Origin: a virus | Lineage: Duplodnaviria > Heunggongvirae > Uroviricota > Caudoviricetes | DNA: 7,098 nt | Direction: 5' to 3' (one strand) | IMG/VR virus record: IMGVR_UViG_2606217102_000007 | Shown here: positions 349 to 7,098 of the stretch, in pieces | Numbering within the stretch: position 1 is the stretch's first letter | Layout of the letters: each line of letters begins with the position of its first letter | Program-made: the position numbers and the translations under genes | Notes under the pieces: generated by a model | Seen by the model: only the letters and a program-made list of their open reading frames with translations | Database searches by the model: none | What the model was told of the DNA's origin: nothing

Positions 349-696
349 TTATATGCGGATGCCAGCGCGTTCCGTTCGTTTCGGGTGCTTCCAGTCGATG
401 CCTTCGAGAAGCATGGACAACTGAGCCGGAGTAAGGTGAACCTTTCCATCGCGGGTGACCGGCCAGACGAAGCGGCCCCGCTCCAGGCGTTTGGTGAAGA
501 GGCACAGTCCGTCACTGTCAGCCCACAGCACTTTTATCTGGTCACCCCGGCGTCCGCGGAAGATGAACAGATGCCCGGAGAACGGGTCATCCTTCAGGAC
601 GTTCTGAACTTTTGAGGCCAGGCCGTTAAAGCCATTTCGCATATCGGTGATACCGGCAACCAGCCAGATACGCGAACCGGCAGGGAGAGATATCAT
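349..696 (-). CDS. tnpB: IS66-family accessory protein TnpB (orf2), 115 aa
   Basis: ORF-track protein MISLPAGSRIWLVAGITDMRNGFNGLA...GHLFIFRGRRGDQIKVLWADSDGLCLFTKRLE matches the conserved IS66 Orf2 family by memory; its start codon overlaps the tnpA stop (ATGA). Confidence 0.9.
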   Translation of the reverse strand: MISLPAGSRIWLVAGITDMRNGFNGLASKVQNVLKDDPFSGHLFIFRGRRGDQIKVLWADSDGLCLFTKRLERGRFVWPVTRDGKVHLTPAQLSMLLEGIDWKHPKRTERAGIRI

Positions 697-1346
697 CAGT
701 GGCTGCTCCCTTTCATTTCGCGGATAAGTGTCTGTAATAACGCCGGTGTCAGTTCACCTTTCAGCCTGAGAGTTCCGGCCGGCAGAACCAGCTCGCAGCA
801 CAGACTGTCTGGCAGTGTATTTATCTGTTCAGGTATCTGCACTGGTGCCGGGATTTTATTATCCGGCTCCGGAGTTAACGTCACGGGAAGTAGCGATGTT
901 TCATGTTCGCCGGGCGGTTGCAGGCCACCGTTACGCCAGAGATGCCGCCAGTTAAAGAGCAGGTTATCGTTAATTCCATTCTCTCGAGCTATTTGTGCGA
1001 CACAGGCACCGGGTAAAAGAGTTTGCTGAACCAGTCTCCATTTAAACTCCGGTGAAAATCGGTTCCGGCGGGGTTTCTCTGCTTTCACAGGCTGAGTCAC
1101 GGTCGGGGCTGAAGGGTATCGCCCCGGGAAAAGAGCCCGGGCCAGTTGCCCGCAGGAATATTCACCGGAAAGAGGCCAGTCAGTGAATACCTGGTGAAAT
1201 CGCCTCACCAGAGAAAAAATGGCGGTTTTGCTGACACCAGTCTGCGCAGAAATGCGCGGGTACGACAGTGACTCGTCAAATCTCAGCTGTAGCACACGCA
1301 GGATCAATTCTGGATTATCTGCCAGTACCGCTTTTCGTGCATTCAT
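696..1346 (-). CDS. tnpA: IS66-family TnpA (orf1), 216 aa, helix-turn-helix protein
   Basis: First gene inside the IS terminus; contains the RRNRFSPEFKWRLVQQ...CVAQIARENGINDNLLFNWR segment typical of transposase Orf1/OrfA HTH proteins. The true start could be an alternative codon, since there is no internal Met. Confidence 0.75.
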   Translation of the reverse strand: MNARKAVLADNPELILRVLQLRFDESLSYPRISAQTGVSKTAIFSLVRRFHQVFTDWPLSGEYSCGQLARALFPGRYPSAPTVTQPVKAEKPRRNRFSPEFKWRLVQQTLLPGACVAQIARENGINDNLLFNWRHLWRNGGLQPPGEHETSLLPVTLTPEPDNKIPAPVQIPEQINTLPDSLCCELVLPAGTLRLKGELTPALLQTLIREMKGSSH

Positions 1347-1405: not shown

Positions 1406-1431
1406 AAAGACGGTTTAAATGATGCGCTTAC
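1406..1431. repeat. IS66-family terminal inverted repeat (outer end at 1431)
   Basis: Sequence ...gacggtttaaatgatgcgcttac; reverse complement begins GTAAGCG. The inner boundary is approximate because the partner repeat is outside the window. Confidence 0.6.
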
Positions 1432-2770
1432 CAGCCTCGGGAGTTAAATCTCCTTTATTTAGAACGTTTTTAAGGCGCGTTTGAGTTGCATGTGTTGCCA
1501 TTTTTGCATAATCAGCTTTTCCCGCTCTCCATGCTGAAGCATCTTTTGGGCTAAGTCCTTTCGCTATAGATTTACTAAGGCTATTGGTTAGCGAGTTGTA
1601 GACCCTGTCGACCATTGTTTGCGACATTGATGGCAGAACTGTACGATCGCCTTTTACGTCAATGCGGAACTGAGTTCTCAGCTTATCAAGTAACTCAAAG
1701 GCATCATCTCCATTTGTTATCTCCTGAATGGCATTCTTATAATCATTAAGCGCAGAAATGGTCTGGGTGTCAGAAACACCTTTAAGTTTCCCAAGTTCGT
1801 TTACTGCTCCGTCGATAGCTCTTATGGCGCCACTTGTATCAACTGGCTTTCCAACCATTCTTCCTGACAGGTTGTTTAGTTTTGACTTGGCTAACGATTT
1901 TTCCCTTGCAACGCCTGACTTTAGACTATCAACGACTACAGATGGATCGTAGTCGCCGTATTTTTCGGTGAAGCGATTAACAAGCTTGGTTCTAGCATCC
2001 TGCTGTGCGGCTCTCATTGGTCCAGTCCCAGCTATGACTCCTTCTGAGTAACCCTGCAGTTGATTGCCAAGTTTTGTTTTTGGAGGAACTACATCCGATG
2101 TCATAACTGGTACATCTGCCGCAGCGGCACGCTTGAGCAATTGCTGATCTGCTGGTGATATTTCGCCACGAACAGCAGTAATTCCACGCCCTATTCCCTT
2201 TGCTGCTGCGGAAAGAACCCCCTGAGCGGCAAGGTTAACTCCGGCATTTATGGCTGCATTTTGCGCGAAATCACCTTTCTGGTTTGCGGCCTCTGCCAGT
2301 GATCCAATAGCCATGCTTCCTGCCGTTCCAACTCCTGGAACTAAATACCCGCCAATTGTTTCTCCAGCTTGCGCGTAGGGGTCTGTCGGTCTGTCTACTG
2401 GACGATAAACATCATCCAATACTTTTGGCCCACCAAGCCCCTGACTGATTGCATTAATCAGACTTGCGCCACCCTGCAATACGTCAAATGGTATGTTTAC
2501 CAGACCGCGACCAGCCTGCTCTGCAATTTGCCCTGCACTTTGACCACCAGTGAGCCAATCGCCAGCTTGTTGCATCAATGATGGTTCTTCTTTCTGCTGC
2601 TGAGGTGGAGGGTATGCTGCATAAAACTGATCTCTTGCTTCAGCCCATTTGTCACCAGCCTTAGGGGCAACAACCTCATCAAAATATTGCGCTTGAGCCT
2701 GTGCTTTCTGTTCTTCAGTTAACGCCTGATACTGTGGAGAGGCGATAACATCTTTCCATGCTTTAGCCAT
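1415..2770 (-). CDS. Phage DNA-ejection (DNA transfer) protein, P22 gp16-like, with 3' end replaced by the IS insertion (native sequence 1432-2770; last codons and stop come from the IS repeat)
   Basis: 451-aa ORF whose final residues GKRII and stop are encoded inside the IS terminal repeat (stop = complement of 1415-1417). Third gene of a gp7/gp20/gp16-like cassette; P22 gp16 is about 609 aa, so roughly 150 C-terminal residues would be missing. Start overlaps the upstream stop as TAATG at 2768-2772. The family call rests on synteny, size and composition only. Confidence 0.55.
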   Translation of the reverse strand: MAKAWKDVIASPQYQALTEEQKAQAQAQYFDEVVAPKAGDKWAEARDQFYAAYPPPQQQKEEPSLMQQAGDWLTGGQSAGQIAEQAGRGLVNIPFDVLQGGASLINAISQGLGGPKVLDDVYRPVDRPTDPYAQAGETIGGYLVPGVGTAGSMAIGSLAEAANQKGDFAQNAAINAGVNLAAQGVLSAAAKGIGRGITAVRGEISPADQQLLKRAAAADVPVMTSDVVPPKTKLGNQLQGYSEGVIAGTGPMRAAQQDARTKLVNRFTEKYGDYDPSVVVDSLKSGVAREKSLAKSKLNNLSGRMVGKPVDTSGAIRAIDGAVNELGKLKGVSDTQTISALNDYKNAIQEITNGDDAFELLDKLRTQFRIDVKGDRTVLPSMSQTMVDRVYNSLTNSLSKSIAKGLSPKDASAWRAGKADYAKMATHATQTRLKNVLNKGDLTPEAGKRII

Positions 2771-4134
2771 TAATCACCCCATAGTGAAGAAAAGTTACTG
2801 CCGGCTGCTGGCTGTGATACCTGTGTAGGTTGAGATTGCTGCCGCTGAGATTTACCAACATTAACGTTATATTGTTGGTTGTAATTGTCGGTATATTGCT
2901 GAATGTCGCGCATTGATTGTTGCAGTGCTTCAGGGCTTGAGAAATCAACCTGTGGCATACCTTGAAAATACATCTTTGCTTCTGCAACGGTGTTGATACC
3001 GGATGCCCCCATGTCTCTGGCTGCTGCAATGCCCTGATTCTGCATCTTTCCTTGGATTCGCTGTGCAGCGTTGTATAGTTTCCTCTGATCACCACCAGAT
3101 GCACGGCTACGAATATCTGCACCAAGAGCAGGAGAACCTGAAGAGCCTGTAATGCCAGTCATGAAGCCAAGATCGTCAATTGATGCACCAGAAATTGCAT
3201 CAAGATCTTTCTTCATTGCGTAATTCTGCGCGCTTGCTGCCGATGTAGCCGGAGCGGCAATAGAGCCAGCAGGAACGCGAACCATATTCCCCTCGTTGTC
3301 GATACCTTCGTAGAACGCATTAGCCCCAGCGCCGTGAAGCTTCCCGCCTACCGTTACAGTTCTGCCATCTGCTAACTGAACTGTACGCTCATTATTCCCA
3401 ACCGACCCTTTCATTGATGCTCTCTGCATCGATAAATCCTGACCGCGCATCGTGATATTCTGACCGCGTGCTGTTAGCGCCTCTCCAGCCTTATTGCTGC
3501 GGATTGTCTCTGCCAGTCTGCCTCGGTCAATCTCACGACCAGCTATCTTGTCCTGAACAGCAAACGCCTTTTCTGGCCCAAGTGCACCGAGAGACATAGT
3601 AGTCAGCATGTGTGATAGCTGTTCTGGATTCTGGATACCTGTCTGAATCATCCAGTCAGCATTCGCACCCACGCGATTTAACCTGTCCTTGTTGTCAGTA
3701 ATGAATTTACTGTAGGCTTCCGGTCCCTGAGAAAGAGCGACGTTAGCCCTCATGGCTAAATCGCCCATATCGTTGCGTTGCTGCTCATTAAGACCGGAAA
3801 ACGCCTGTTGTGCCTGTGCAACAAACGCTGGATTTTCCTGGGCAAACTTAAATAGTCCCGATGGATCACCAGAAGCCCATGCATCAGCGTGAACCTTATT
3901 GAACGCCCTAATAGCTTTCTGTTGCTGTTCCTGATTGTAAATATCAGCAACTCCAGCCAGACCACGTAACGCGGTCAGACCAACGTTATTTGCACCTGAT
4001 CGAGCCAATTCATTGTTTTCGCGGATCAGACCAAGCGTTGCGTTAATGTCGCTTGCCTTTGGCGCATTCTCATTTTGCGTACCGATGCCAGCCAGAAAAC
4101 CACCAGAATTAATACCCTGTTGCCACGTAGCCAT
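2770..4134 (-). CDS. Phage DNA-ejection (DNA transfer) protein, P22 gp20-like, 454 aa
   Basis: Long intact ORF between the gp7-like and gp16-like genes; the size matches P22 gp20 (about 471 aa). The complement of 4139-4146 gives an AAGGGG ribosome-binding site upstream of the ATG. Gly/Ala/Gln-rich with a Q/N-rich C-terminus. Assignment is by gene order and size, not by sequence search. Confidence 0.55.
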
Positions 4135-4143
4135 GATTACCCC

Positions 4144-4545
4144 TTAAAACAACGAGCCAAGCAGACCAAGACCGCCACCAACAGCGGCACCAATACCAGT
4201 ACCAATACCAGGAACAATGCTGCCAAGTTTTGCTCCAGCAATTGCTCCAGAGGCAGCCCCGCCTATTGCAGATTGAAGGCCGGAAGGTCTATTAGCGTTT
4301 GCCGCCGCCAGTGCCGCGCTTTGCTGTGAAATCTGGCTCATGTTGTTGGCATATGTTTGCCCGGCATTTGCCTGCCCCTGAAGCGCGCCAAGACCAATAT
4401 TTGCCAGATTCTGGTAGTTGTTCATTTGTCCAGATAGCCATTGCTGACCAAGCGTTGGTGCGATTGTTGCTAACTGATTACTGGTTGAGGTGGAACCCAA
4501 TCCACCTGTTGCTTCCGCTGCCGCCAGACTCTGATATTCGCTGAC
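4144..4545 (-). pseudogene. 5'-truncated P22 gp7-like ejection protein gene (C-terminal ~130 codons native; the ORF-track N-terminal ~50 codons are read-through into unrelated DNA)
   Basis: The ORF-track protein (4144-4695) opens with an aberrant W/C/H-rich stretch (MAWWMASSSALWRVPLNGISRLGSNPITFPSSTIVLTSRSFHHCHGTGC), then switches to A/G/Q/N-rich sequence ending in a Gly-zipper-like hydrophobic tail. Those first ~150 nt are antisense to a plus-strand exonuclease-like frame. Confidence 0.5.
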
Positions 4546-4732
4546 AGGGCAGCCAGTTCCATGGCAGTGGTGGAATGACCGCGACGTAAGAACAATCGTC
4601 GAGCTTGGAAAGGTAATAGGATTCGACCCTAAGCGAGATATGCCATTCAAAGGAACTCGCCACAACGCGCTTGATGATGCCATCCACCAAGCCAAATACG
4701 TTTCAGCAATCTGGAAAAAATTAGCTAAATAA
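4535..4732 (+). pseudogene. 3' fragment of a DEDDh-family 3'-5' exonuclease gene (final ~65 codons including the Exo III-like motif)
   Basis: Plus frame open from 4535 (in-frame TGA at 4532-4534) to TAA at 4730-4732: ...WNDRDVRTIVELGKVIGFDPKRDMPFKGTRHNALDDAIHQAKYVSAIWKKLAK. H-N-A-L-D-D-A resembles the Exo III motif (H-x-A-x-x-D-A) of DnaQ-like exonucleases. No N-terminal Exo I/II region is present, and the next gene's RBS and ATG follow 16 nt later. Confidence 0.45.
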
Positions 4733-4737
4733 TCAAC

Positions 4738-4742
4738 AGGAG
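4738..4742 (+). promoter_or_regulatory. Ribosome-binding site (AGGAG) for the 4749 CDS
   Basis: caacAGGAGaaaaacATG, 6-nt spacer to the ATG at 4749. Confidence 0.6.
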
Positions 4743-4748
4743 AAAAAC

Positions 4749-5042
4749 ATGCCAGCGCCTTTGTATGGTGCGGATGACCCGCGCCGCTGTTCCGGCAAAT
4801 CAGTATCGGAGGTGCTGGATAAATTCAGAAAAAACTACGACCTGATAATGTCGCTACCGCAGGAAACGAAAAAGGAAAAGGAATTTCGCCACTGTATATG
4901 GCTTGCAGAGAAAGAAGAACGCGAGCGAATTTACCAGACATCAATCCGACCATTCCGTAAAGCCACATATACCCACTTCCCTGAAATTGACCCGCGCCTG
5001 CGTAATTACCGCTCACGCTATGGCGCTATCAGTAATGACTGA
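4749..5042 (+). CDS. Hypothetical prophage early-region protein, 97 aa, highly charged
   Basis: ATG preceded by an AGGAG RBS; the stop at 5040-5042 lies inside the next gene's RBS (tGAGGAa), indicating operon organisation. No family recognised. Confidence 0.6.
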
Positions 5043-5052
5043 GGAATTTACC

Positions 5053-5217
5053 ATGAGAGGACTTGCATACAATCCCGGCATTCTTCCGGCAGAAATGATT
5101 ATTCGCCAACGCGTAAAGCCAATGCCATCGAGAGAGGAATTGCTTAAGAGAAATTCTTTTCCATCAGTGAATCAAAACAAATATCTGAATGCAATGTGGC
5201 GGAGTTGGAAGAAATGA
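5053..5217 (+). CDS. Hypothetical small basic protein, 54 aa ([54 protein letters not shown])
   Basis: ATG at 5053 with a GAGGAA RBS 6 nt upstream. The ORF track extends the same frame back to 4903, but that would overlap the 97-aa gene; the internal start with an RBS is preferred. Its stop overlaps the next start as ATGA. Confidence 0.4.
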
Positions 5218-5645
5218 AACAAATGTCACTAATTGAGATGGATGGATTTCTGAAAGGTAAATGCATCCCACGAGATTTAAAGGTTAACGAAACAAACGCT
5301 GAATATCTGGTGCGTAAATTTGCTGAAGCGGAGGCCAAGTGCGCGGCGCTGGCAGCGGAGAATGCGGGGATGAAGTCTGGCGCTATGGACGAAATCAAGG
5401 TTATCAACCGTGGAGGGCAGGCATATTGTGTAAAAGATGGAGTGCAAGTTAATCCCATGTATGCAAGAGGGTGGAATGACTATCGCGCAAAGTCTATGCA
5501 ATCAGACACCCCAGCCACCGATGCTTTTCTGGCTGAAGTACGAGCGCAAGGCGTGGAGATGTTTGCGGAGTGTGCATACACACTTGAACATCATGATCAC
5601 GCAGTAGCTTTTGCCGCCGAGCTGCGCAAAGGAGGCAACCAGTGA
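5214..5645 (+). CDS. Hypothetical prophage protein, 143 aa from ATG 5214 (ORF track gives a GTG start at 5196); contains four Cys and an EHHDH cluster
   Basis: ATGA overlap with the upstream stop; GGAG 9 nt upstream of ATG 5214. Its stop (5643-5645) overlaps the next gene's GTG start as GTGA. No family confidently recognised. Confidence 0.6.
5632..5637 (+). promoter_or_regulatory. Ribosome-binding site (AGGAGG) for the 5642 CDS
   Basis: aaAGGAGGcaaccaGTG; strong Shine-Dalgarno sequence 4 nt upstream of the GTG start. Confidence 0.6.
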
Positions 5646-6394
5646 GCAAGATTGACTATCAGGCACTGCGTGAGGCGGCAGAAAAAGCAACGTGTGGCGA
5701 GTGGTCGCTCGAATATGGAGAGGGCCGATTTGATGGTGATGATGCACTAATTCATCGCGAGGCTGCTGGATATATTCCCATTTGCAGAATTGAAGGAGCG
5801 CATCCTGAAAGCGGTTTCGATGAAGATTTCCAAATGGAACAGCAGGCCAATGCTGAATTCATCGCCGCAGCCAATCCGGCTACCGTCTTGGCGCTGCTGG
5901 ATGAGCTGGAAAGAAACCAGCAATACATAAAACGCCTCGACCAGGAGAACGAGGATATTGCGCTAACGGTAGGGAAGCTGCGCGTTGAGCTGGAAGGCAA
6001 AGACAGCAAAATAGCCAATCTTACCGCCGAACGCGATGCTCTTCGTGAAGGTGAGATGGGCGACGCTAGGCATAGCAACACACGGGCCGCAGCTGATATC
6101 TACTTCCAACTGGTCGAGGAGTGCGAAATTCCTGCTGGCGGATCTCTGGTCGAGTACGTTGACGATATGCGCGAGAAGCTGGAAGCCGCAGAGAAGCGCA
6201 TTGCAGAGTTAGAAAGTGGTTCTCAGGCACAAAAGTTAGTTGAAGCAATCATTGTTGCGATAGAAAACGAACAGGAAAGGCTTTTTGATGAAGATTACCT
6301 AATGGATTCGAAAGAATGCATTGACGTAATTCGTGAAGAAGTAAAGCGATGGAATGATTCCCGTGCCGCTGGCATTCGCATCAAAGGAGAGTGA
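5642..6394 (+). CDS. Ead/Ea22-like prophage early protein, 250 aa, acidic with a central coiled coil
   Basis: GTG start with a strong AGGAGG RBS. The N-terminus [21 protein letters not shown] and the AANPATVLALLDELERNQQYIKRLDQENEDIALTVGKLRVELEGKDSKIANLTAERDALREGEM heptad-like region resemble Ead/Ea22-family proteins of lambdoid prophages, as recalled from memory and not searched. Confidence 0.5.
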   Translation: MSKIDYQALREAAEKATCGEWSLEYGEGRFDGDDALIHREAAGYIPICRIEGAHPESGFDEDFQMEQQANAEFIAAANPATVLALLDELERNQQYIKRLDQENEDIALTVGKLRVELEGKDSKIANLTAERDALREGEMGDARHSNTRAAADIYFQLVEECEIPAGGSLVEYVDDMREKLEAAEKRIAELESGSQAQKLVEAIIVAIENEQERLFDEDYLMDSKECIDVIREEVKRWNDSRAAGIRIKGE

Positions 6395-6395
6395 G

Positions 6396-7098
6396 ATGAT
6401 TCACTATCACGGTGGGCCTATTACTCCGGATACGTGCGCCATGAGAGCATGGAAAGGGCGACATGCGTTTATCAGTTTTGCGCATTCAGGCCAGATCAAT
6501 CTCGCGGCTGAATACTGTCAGTCGTTCGCGCTGGACAACGGTGCATTCACCGCCTGGAAAGCAGCTGGCAAAAACAAAATCGACTGGAGCGATTACTACG
6601 AGTTTGTTGCTCGCTGGAAGAATCACCCAGGATTCGATTTTGCCATTATCCCGGATGTTATTGATGGCGGAGAGGAGAAAAATGATGCGCTTCTGAATGA
6701 GTGGCCTCACGGAAAACTAGCTGGCGTTCCAGTGTGGCACATGAATGAAAGTGACGAGCGATTTATTCATTTGTGCAATGAGTTTCCGCGAGTGGCTATC
6801 GGTAGTTGTGGCGACTATGACGTAAAGCGCCCAACTCTTGCGGTAGCCAGAATGAAAGACCTGATTCGTCACATTGTTGATGAGCATGGTCAGCCGGTTA
6901 CGAAACTACATGGATTGCGCATGTTAAATCCGCAGATATTCACAAAATTACCCTTAGCCAGCGCAGATAGTACGAACGTCGCTCGAAACATCGGTATTGA
7001 TAAAGCCTGGTCTGGGGCTTATGCACCTGCAAGTAAAGAGACACGCGCAGCATTAATGGTAGAACGGATTGAGGCACACAATAGCCCTGGTTCTCTTG
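6396..7098 (+). CDS. TGT-superfamily protein, candidate DpdA-like 7-deazaguanine DNA transglycosylase (first 234 codons; continues past window end)
   Basis: ATG at 6396 with AGGAG 6 nt upstream, open to the window end, so absent from the ORF track. Motif order and spacing parallel bacterial Tgt: LDNGAF (D47, 6534-6536) vs TDSGGF; AIIPDVIDGG vs IVMIFDEC; RVAIGSCGD vs YAVGGLAVGE; KLHGLRMLNP vs YLMGVGKP; ADSTNVARNIG (D191, 6966-6968) vs FDCVMPTRNARNG, the nucleophile-Asp motif. No Zn-binding CxCxxC is seen in the portion present. Confidence 0.55.
   Translation, partial: MIHYHGGPITPDTCAMRAWKGRHAFISFAHSGQINLAAEYCQSFALDNGAFTAWKAAGKNKIDWSDYYEFVARWKNHPGFDFAIIPDVIDGGEEKNDALLNEWPHGKLAGVPVWHMNESDERFIHLCNEFPRVAIGSCGDYDVKRPTLAVARMKDLIRHIVDEHGQPVTKLHGLRMLNPQIFTKLPLASADSTNVARNIGIDKAWSGAYAPASKETRAALMVERIEAHNSPGSL

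Follow-up and report, generated by a model that had tools for sequence, protein, structure and literature searches.

A coupled four-gene string in a defective E. coli prophage is probably the abc2-proximal 'ea' segment of a P22/HK620-like pL operon

The window, that is, the whole stretch of 7,098 nucleotides that we analysed, is a defective E. coli prophage flanked by dacD and sbcB. By reading the sequence directly, we found that four plus-strand open reading frames (97, 54, 143 and 250 aa) occupy positions 4749–6394. A first-pass annotation of the same DNA had described these frames and their junctions, and both were confirmed upon re-reading. They are referred to below as genes 1 to 4, and the features of the locus are as follows.

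4144–4542, minus strand: P22 gene 7 (DNA ejection protein) pseudogene, 3' part; PF25688 (P22_gp7), profile positions 101–230 only
4535–4732, plus strand: 3'-5' exonuclease (Rv2179c-like), 3' stub; PF16473, profile positions 125–177 of 177
4738–4742, plus strand: SD AGGAG of abc2, 6 nt 5' of the ATG (from sequence)
4749–5042, plus strand: gene 1, abc2, phage anti-RecBCD protein 2, 97 aa; PF11043, phrog_656
5053–5217, plus strand: gene 2, DUF2737 small protein, 54 aa, equivalent to P22 orf56, HK620 hkaI and HK97 gp38; PF10930
5214–5645, plus strand: gene 3, mosaic EaE-like protein, 143 aa (HK620 hkaH slot); phrog_614/492/368
5508–5555, plus strand: conserved linker, gene 3 residues 99–114 (16 residues), residues 93–100% conserved
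5556–5621, plus strand: hypervariable cassette, gene 3 residues 115–136, holding an EHHDH cluster at 5586–5600
5630–5635, plus strand: SD AGGAGG of gene 4, within the K-G-G codons of the gene 3 LRKGGNQ tail
5642–6394, plus strand: gene 4, Ead/Ea22-like protein, 250 aa; PF13935
6384–6389, plus strand: SD AAGGAG of the TGT-like gene, within the terminal K-G-E codons of gene 4
6396–7098, plus strand: TGT/DpdA-like gene, truncated by the end of the window (full length 251 aa) and lying outside the four-gene unit

The stop codon of abc2 (TGA, 5040–5042) overlaps the SD of gene 2 (GAGGA, 5041–5045), which lies 7 nt 5' of the ATG at 5053. Genes 2 and 3 overlap by ATGA at 5214–5217, genes 3 and 4 meet in GTGA at 5642–5645 after the AGGAGG, and the stop of gene 4 (TGA, 6392–6394) is followed by the single base G6395 and then by the ATG of the TGT-like gene at 6396. 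We found no terminator-like sites on the plus strand within 4749–6394. Among related loci, the ATGA overlap between the DUF2737 gene and gene 3 is retained in 60 of 62, the 10-nt spacer between abc2 and DUF2737 in 43 of 52, and the 1-nt gap in front of the TGT-like gene in 46 of 66. As the same junctions recur in independent relatives, they are more than chance, and the earlier view of one translationally coupled string is correct. The string is translated as a coupled chain, since every stop overlaps or abuts the next SD and start. Synonymous change is in excess in all four frames, dN/dS being about 0.04–0.63 and below 1 for each gene (0.08–0.37 for abc2; mostly 0.04–0.5 for gene 2, with 51 distinct intact alleles; 0.05–0.12 for close alleles of gene 3; 0.31–0.63 for gene 4). 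The coding conservation proposed as a check on these small frames is thus present throughout the string.

From its sequence, gene 1 is identified as Abc2, the anti-RecBCD protein of P22. It matches PF11043 with 211.3 bits (cut-off 25; residues 1–97 on profile positions 1–97) and chain A of PDB entry 8B1T with an E value of 7.7e-58, where 88 of 97 residues are identical as counted from the alignment. Its IRPF motif is intact and includes Pro68, which in P22 Abc2 is the residue engaged by host PpiB (PMC9836394). The mechanism of Abc2 has been described and its complex with RecBCD has been solved (PMC9836394). The protein encoded here would bind RecC and redirect RecBCD to phage recombination, away from degradation of the phage DNA, as established for the 91%-identical P22 protein. 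Host-takeover genes had been suspected in the string, and this part of the earlier proposal holds for one member, Abc2. Gene 2 lies directly downstream of abc2, matches PF10930 with 107.3 bits (cut-off 25) and is 75% identical to P22 orf56. A sequence search of the PDB with gene 2 gave nothing significant, and our literature search on DUF2737 found no paper. Together, abc2, gene 2 and the 5' third of gene 3 form one conserved, jointly inherited DNA block.

Gene 3 consists of an N-terminal head, a short coiled coil, a beta-rich middle and a C-terminal helical hairpin. It matched no Pfam family, and the PHROGs 614, 492 and 368 carry no function. When it was compared with P22 EaE, only residues 32–113 aligned (82 aa, 37% identity, E value 4e-10), which covers the coiled coil and a stretch of 14 residues. 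In relatives of gene 3, this body is joined to an Ead_Ea22 or an Arc head. By these alignments gene 3 is probably a mosaic relative of P22 EaE that has modules in common with the Ea22 proteins. Its PDB sequence search gave nothing significant. An AlphaFold2 model built from a 16-sequence alignment had a mean pLDDT of 57.8, with only the C-terminal hairpin (residues 100–139) at about 80, and Foldseek with this low-confidence model found no match in the PDB at E ≤ 0.001. At the nucleotide level, the linker is an island of conservation present in 71 of 79 loci. The depth of conservation falls to 29 of 79 loci at the cassette, for which we counted at least 14 unrelated types among 148 sequences, and the LRKGGNQ tail is again conserved family-wide. 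The cassettes vary in length and share no sequence, and we therefore consider that they were replaced rather than mutagenised; a diversity-generating retroelement as their source is ruled out on the same ground.

In gene 4, an Ea22-type N-terminal domain and a coiled coil are followed by a C-terminal part whose type is rare. Its match to PF13935 scores 116.7 bits (cut-off 27), its residues 1–124 match the N-terminus and coil of lambda Ea22 (BLASTP, E value 5e-24), and it is similar to P22 EaD with an E value of 3e-17. On sequence grounds we classify it as an Ead/Ea22-like protein related to both. Residues 125–250 had no PDB sequence match, including the solved CTD of lambda Ea22; since unrelated CTDs are known within this family, such a mismatch is compatible with membership. 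The protein ends in ..IRIKGE, that is, in the terminal basic-Gly-Glu ('+GE') motif that has been described for Ea22 proteins (PMC7093339). In PADLOC, which gave no defence-family match, the single hit was a coiled-coil-level one of gene 4 to LmuB (E value 0.0088). Genes 3 and 4 are not paralogues at the sequence level (BLASTP E value 0.85). They do draw on a common module pool, via fusion relatives.

The dacD/sbcB prophage remnant L001 is 99.9% identical to the window by genomic context comparison, and in it RefSeq names genes 1 to 4 as anti-RecBCD, DUF2737, hypothetical and ead/Ea22-like, respectively. An NCBIfam scan of all eight window proteins returned zero matches. The four proteins had been taken as uncharacterised, which no longer stands: gene 1 is Abc2 with its solved RecBCD complex, genes 2 and 4 belong to the curated families DUF2737 and Ead_Ea22, and RefSeq already annotates all four genes. 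The string is in fact already known: it is what P22-like phages ordinarily carry as the accessory tail of their pL operon, it is RefSeq-annotated, and its first gene is structurally characterised.

The DNA upstream of the string tells how it came to lie here. RefSeq flags both the gene 7 and the exonuclease stubs of L001 as pseudogenes. The gene 7 stub, a partial pseudogene, is one edge of a prophage-internal deletion, and the exonuclease stub, whose translation is broken by stops upstream of about 4535, is the other; the two share 4535–4542, and this overlap is the deletion joint. A single internal deletion took out pL, N and the immunity, replication, lysis and head genes. The first-pass annotation had treated the region as a prophage early region, and what we find is a stranded remnant of one, not active, with pL and everything upstream of the string deleted. 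In the window, gene 16 is additionally interrupted by an IS66 element. The region is partly present in 2757 of 5426 complete E. coli genomes (about half), and the whole combination in only 22.

We next compared the string with three known systems. HK620 is the closest sequenced phage for this stretch, with about 95% nucleotide identity over parts. Its order is pL-N-...-Sak4-SSB-hkaJ(abc2)-hkaI-hkaH-hkaG, and the four slots are chained alike, downstream of pL, N and the recombination genes. It differs from the window in that hkaH and hkaG are only 44% and 77% identical to their counterparts, that hkaF comes next and no TGT-like gene is found, and that an SSB gene lies upstream of abc2, where the lineage of the window had the 3'-5' exonuclease. 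In P22 the early-left order is abc2-orf56-eaE-orf45-eaF-eaD-eaI-eaA-eaG-eaC-xis-int. Operon position and gene order are shared, Abc2 and orf56 being 91% and 75% identical, as are the 10-nt abc2/orf56 spacer and the overlapping junctions, and genes 3 and 4 can still be recognised as kin of EaE and EaD. Unlike in P22, however, gene 3 has only 37% identity to EaE over 82 aa, the likeness of gene 4 to EaD is confined to the coiled coil, orf45 and eaF are missing, and a TGT-like gene, which P22 lacks, follows. Ea22 of lambda and the Stx phages, encoded in the exo-xis region, has the N-terminal segment and the coil start in common with gene 4 (ERNQQYIKR.DQENEDIALTVGKLRVELE is nearly identical). Both proteins are three-part mosaics and both end in ..AGIRIKGE, whereas in gene 4 the N-terminal domain contains an insertion of 36 aa, the coiled coil is longer, and the C-terminal part bears no relation to the solved domain of lambda Ea22.

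The family matches and the HK620 and P22 synteny agree with the earlier assignment of the string to the early-left (pL) operon of a lambdoid, P22-like prophage. We consider it very likely, with a probability of about 85%, that the string is the abc2-proximal 'ea' segment of the pL operon of a P22/HK620-like Lederbergvirus, kept in the defective dacD-sbcB prophage.

Two other proposals would give the string a present role, one together with the TGT-like gene and one in the host. The four genes might be uncharacterised anti-restriction or exclusion genes that form a functional unit with a TGT-like DNA-modification enzyme. The junction to the enzyme gene is indeed tight, with a gap of 1 nt and an SD that falls within the final codons of gene 4; in 42 of 66 loci the TGT-like gene is preceded, within 450 nt, by an Ead/Ea22-like gene; and anti-restriction genes such as Lar occur in the early-left accessory region of relatives. 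However, our survey of co-occurrence, which the first-pass annotation had suggested, went against such a linkage: none of 60 loci anchored on gene 3 has the TGT-like gene downstream, and none of 66 loci anchored on the TGT-like gene has all four genes; in these 66, abc2 occurs in 12, DUF2737 in 13 and gene 3 in 9. The Ea22-like genes preceding the TGT-like gene are of many unrelated types with only the junction in common, HK620 and P22 bear the string without this enzyme, the known function of Abc2 is unrelated to DNA modification, and there was no PADLOC match to defence-system models. We thus regard a functional unit of this kind as highly improbable. The TGT-like protein itself matched neither Pfam (PF01702, TGT) nor NCBIfam nor PADLOC, had no match in the PDB by phmmer, and gave only noise in a profile search with its family; its only matches are PHROG 887 and, at 35% tblastn identity, DpdA of phage 7-11. 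As the survey makes plain, the TGT-like gene moves independently, as a cassette of its own, and is to be judged by itself. As for the host, it might have domesticated the remnant and retained the intact string and the TGT-like gene because they are expressed and of use, for instance in modulating RecBCD, in defence or as a decoy. All frames are intact in spite of the defective prophage, and the same remnant recurs in several complete genomes. These genomes, however, are 99.9–100% identical across the region, which points to recent common descent with no time for decay; the adjoining genes are already pseudogenes, gene 16 carrying an IS66 besides; and a simple consensus scan of 4100–7098 found no sigma-70-like promoter, against 3.6 expected. 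Domestication is therefore improbable in our judgement. The intact frames are compatible with a recent deletion or with continued use.

Gene 3 has been the subject of two further proposals. Four cysteines (C17, C43, C72 and C120) and the cluster E125-H-H-D-H129 had suggested a metal-binding protein. These residues are present as described, and C17 is invariant among 59 homologues. The cluster, however, sits in the cassette that relatives exchange for at least 14 unrelated sequences, and the remaining ligands are poorly conserved in the same 59 homologues (H126 27%, H127 7%, H129 29%, C120 53%, C43 80%, C72 75%). The model places it in a helix-turn-helix hairpin and, at usable confidence, does not bring it together with the cysteines. 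The proposed site is not conserved, and a metal-binding role is very hard to maintain. The hairpin tip might instead be a true specificity cassette, swapped between invariant flanks and neutralising variable targets of the host or of rival phages, perhaps together with DUF2737, its constantly coupled partner, rather than a product of neutral shuffling. Such a reading, which would liken gene 3 to an anti-defence protein or decoy, we hold to be unlikely. For hkaH and hkaJ the literature offered nothing but a cell-division screen; the fragment enriched there contains kil as well and is uninformative on hkaH.

Returning to the pL-operon assignment, the HK620 and P22 synteny suggests that in an intact phage the string would be transcribed from pL by antiterminated read-through. 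In the remnant it is probably silent, because the deletion removed pL and the upstream genes, or expressed by fortuitous read-through alone, to judge from the consensus scan. Genes 3 and 4 encode coiled-coil proteins assembled as mosaics from modules of the EaE and EaD/Ea22 pool; the mosaicism is seen in the block-and-island profile of conservation and in the interchange of N-terminal heads and of cassettes. Published work describes Ea22 as a mosaic protein with a pro-lysogenic effect (PMC7093339, PMC10834534) and lambda ea22 as non-essential (PMC10695390). By analogy with Ea22 of lambda and the Stx phages, the products of genes 3 and 4 most likely act as oligomeric adaptors, which would either tilt the choice between lysis and lysogeny or bind partners in the host through their exchangeable C-terminal modules. 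For gene 4 the Ea22 analogy is based on the N-terminal and coiled-coil parts only. Genes 2 to 4 are reasonable targets for anti-defence or lysogeny screens.

Finally, the junction sequences may serve twice, as ribosome-binding sites of the next gene and as joints for the exchange of modules between phages. According to the literature, the significance of the conserved C-terminal '+GE' tails is unknown. Read as nucleic acid, the conserved 'KGE' and 'RKGG' tails encode the SD of the next coupled gene and so appear to mark recombination joints. This offers a nucleic-acid explanation for the conservation of Ea22-type tails, and is a small but useful by-product of the analysis.

The plus strand of 4749-6394 is wholly occupied by four ORFs of 97, 54, 143 and 250 aa (genes 1 to 4). 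The first-pass annotation had described these small ORFs as chained by stop/start signals, and reading the sequence directly we observed the same junctions, all on the plus strand:

abc2 (gene 1)/gene 2: TGA 5040-5042 overlaps GAGGA 5041-5045, which lies 7 nt 5' of ATG 5053
Gene 2/gene 3: ATGA 5214-5217
Gene 3/gene 4: AGGAGG 5630-5635, then GTGA 5642-5645
Gene 4/TGT-like gene: AAGGAG 6384-6389, TGA 6392-6394, one base, ATG 6396

A scan of the string found no plus-strand terminator-like site breaking it up, and a scan of 4100-7098 for sigma-70-like promoters gave 0 against 3.6 expected.

Next, the genes were mapped onto 80 viral loci retrieved via gene 3 (gene-3-anchored) and 80 retrieved via the TGT-like gene (TGT-anchored), and dN/dS was computed against the window.

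dN/dS of the four genes and their neighbour
abc2: 0.08-0.37
DUF2737 (gene 2): mostly 0.04-0.5, with 51 distinct intact alleles
Gene 3, close alleles: 0.05-0.12
Gene 3, mosaic relatives: 0.2-0.6
Gene 4: 0.31-0.63
TGT-like gene: 0.02-0.03, dS saturated

From these values, we concluded that all are real genes. The coding conservation on which the first-pass annotation had made its proposal depend was evident as a synonymous bias in all four small ORFs (0.04-0.63). The four genes are thus real, and they are translationally coupled. The gene 3 frame is also open 5' as far as GTG 5196 (5196-5213), and gene callers in some relatives lengthen the gene by 28 aa across DUF2737 in the other frame, giving 171-200 aa forms, some of which are labelled 'HNH endonuclease'. 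Purifying selection acts on the DUF2737 frame, so this extension is probably a calling and annotation artefact.

The same annotation had called the four products unknown proteins, a description that does not hold: gene 1 is fully characterised, genes 2 and 4 fall into curated families, and gene 3 is a mosaic relative of EaE. Gene 1 encodes Abc2, with a full-length match to PF11043 (211 bits), and a match to phrog_656; it shares 88/97 residues, Pro68 among them, with P22 Abc2 as solved in PDB 8B1T/8B1U. P22 Abc2, along with host PpiB, binds the Chi-recognition domains of RecC and is thought to make RecBCD assist phage recombination (PMC9836394). Gene 2 is a DUF2737 gene (PF10930, 107 bits) with 75% identity to P22 orf56, and is the counterpart of HK620 hkaI. 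Gene 4 is Ead/Ea22-like (PF13935, 116.7 bits); its similarity to lambda Ea22 (E 5e-24) covers the N-terminal segment and the first part of the coiled coil, that to P22 EaD the coiled coil, and a PDB sequence search returned no solved structure for its C-terminal part. This agrees with the published description of Ea22, in which an N-terminal segment and a coiled coil are followed by a C-terminal domain that is unrelated and exchangeable (PMC10834534). Ea22 is non-essential; in lambda and Stx phages it is pro-lysogenic (PMC7093339, PMC10695390). In HK620, the four slots occur in identical order 3' of pL (the early-left promoter), N, kil and the recombination genes, and the P22 order is abc2-orf56-eaE-...-eaD. 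RefSeq names are already given to all four genes in an identical locus. The string is the familiar accessory tail of the early-left operon in P22-type phages.

The window is a segment of the E. coli chromosome. Its 1428-7098 part is 99.9% identical to the dacD-sbcB locus found in strain EC0026B as well as in a few further genomes, where about 15.5 kb of a decayed P22-like prophage is left. This prophage holds the tailspike, arc/ant, ejection genes 16 and 20, a 5'-truncated gene 7, a 5'-truncated 3'-5' exonuclease, the four genes, the TGT-like gene, DUF551, DUF4222, xis and int. The following features bear on its decay:

349-696, minus strand: TnpB_IS66 of an IS66-family element
696-1346, minus strand: HTH transposase of an IS66-family element
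4144-4542, minus strand: 3' part of gene 7, covering Pfam model positions 101-230 only
4535-4732, plus strand: 3' stub of the 3'-5' exonuclease, covering the last 53 positions of PF16473 only

The exonuclease frame is closed 5' of about 4535, and the two annotated stubs meet divergently at 4535-4542, overlapping by about 8 nt. Since the late and pL operons of a P22-type prophage are transcribed divergently, one internal deletion explains this arrangement. From the HK620 and P22 maps, we infer that this single deletion took out pL, N and the immunity, replication, lysis and head genes. The string now lies in a promoterless prophage remnant. Separately, ejection gene 16 is cut short near 1415-1427 by the IS66-family element (1-1427); in EC0026B, whose locus is identical apart from this, the gene is whole and encodes 621 aa.

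We then compared gene content. DUF2737 was upstream of gene 3 in 60/77 gene-3-anchored loci with enough flank, with the ATGA overlap in all 60; abc2 was also present in 51, and an Ea22-like gene followed gene 3 in 44/60. Among the 66 TGT-anchored loci, an Ea22-like gene of some kind preceded the TGT-like gene in 43, while abc2 was found in 12, DUF2737 in 13 and a gene 3 relative in 9. The co-occurrence of string and TGT-like gene anticipated by the first-pass annotation was not borne out: the TGT-like gene was downstream of gene 3 in 0/60 gene-3-anchored loci, all four genes stood together in 0/66 TGT-anchored loci, and there is no specific tie. These counts indicate a stable block of abc2, DUF2737 and the gene 3 head, and an independent TGT-like cassette. 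Of 5426 complete E. coli genomes, 2757 contain parts of the region and only 22 the entire combination. Elsewhere in E. coli, the slot after DUF2737 (about 5214-5645) can hold unrelated accessory genes, such as DUF5405, DUF7446, DUF7739, YfdS or Lar, so that this position behaves as an accessory-gene hotspot. A dATP/dGTP pyrophosphohydrolase also occupies it in other prophages, and Lar is a restriction-alleviation protein. The conservation-depth profile showed a conserved block at 4749-5350 and islands, separated by troughs, at 5500-5550, 5600-5700 (gene 3/4 junction), 5850-6000 and 6350-6400 (gene 4/TGT junction).

A terminal basic residue-Gly-Glu has been noted in every Ea22 protein, and its significance has been called unknown (PMC7093339). 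We observed that gene 4 closes with AAA GGA GAG TGA, which supplies an AAGGAG Shine-Dalgarno sequence 6 nt 5' of the next ATG (6380-6398), and that the codons for the gene 3 RKGG tail (AAA GGA GGC) likewise form the Shine-Dalgarno sequence of gene 4 (5626-5645). ORFs preceding the TGT-like gene end in ..GI(R/K)(I/V)KGE with a 1-nt gap in 46/66 loci, and the Shine-Dalgarno core is retained despite differing residues (KES, VKGE, EAE). Judged from these sequences, the likeliest explanation of the '+GE' and RKGG tails is that each holds a ribosome-binding site and marks a joint for recombination. Lambda ea22 (1340-1360 of the lambda locus) has identical 3' nucleotides, but ATC at the ATG position and no gene after it; we read it as a probable fossil of the same junction.

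Gene 3 matched no Pfam family; the PHROGs that it matched are of unknown function. It aligns with P22 EaE over 82 residues, a coiled coil and a motif of 14 residues being common to both. Its relatives carry a cassette of 22-51 residues between two invariant segments, one of 16 residues and the other FAA(E/Q)LRKGGNQ, with at least 14 mutually unrelated types in 148 sequences:

5556-5621, plus strand: hypervariable cassette of gene 3, forming the tip of a predicted helical hairpin

The four Cys (17, 43, 72, 120) and E125-HHDH-129, earlier proposed as a possible metal site, are there; the metal site itself is unsupported, because EHHDH falls within the cassette and its conservation is low (H127 7%). 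Only the helical hairpin of the cassette region was confidently modelled, and Foldseek against the PDB found no fold match for the model. In relatives, the same gene 3 body carries alternative N-terminal heads, namely an Ead_Ea22 domain (loci L145, 5758-6363, and L112, 5451-6113) or an Arc-like ribbon-helix-helix DNA-binding domain (L126, 5767-6411). These fusions suggest that the body serves as a module for binding partners or for oligomerisation.

The neighbouring gene is the following:

6396-7098, plus strand: TGT/DpdA-like protein of 251 aa, cut by the window end; the full gene is at 16968-17723 of the 99.9%-identical locus (L001)

The protein gave no match in Pfam, NCBIfam, PADLOC or, by sequence, the PDB. 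It falls in PHROG 887, 'queuine tRNA-ribosyltransferase', and has 35% identity to DpdA of Salmonella phage 7-11, so the 'TGT-like' label is reasonable at the level of sequence, family membership being putative. Phage 7-11 DpdA was placed by Hutinet et al. 2019 in the 'singleton DpdA' group, whose phages are without preQ0 synthesis genes (PMC6884629), and the present protein is a putative member. Purifying selection on the gene is very strong (at dS above 1.5 the proteins still share 92% of their amino acids), and the gene is widespread in prophages of Enterobacterales, Vibrio, Aeromonas and Shewanella.
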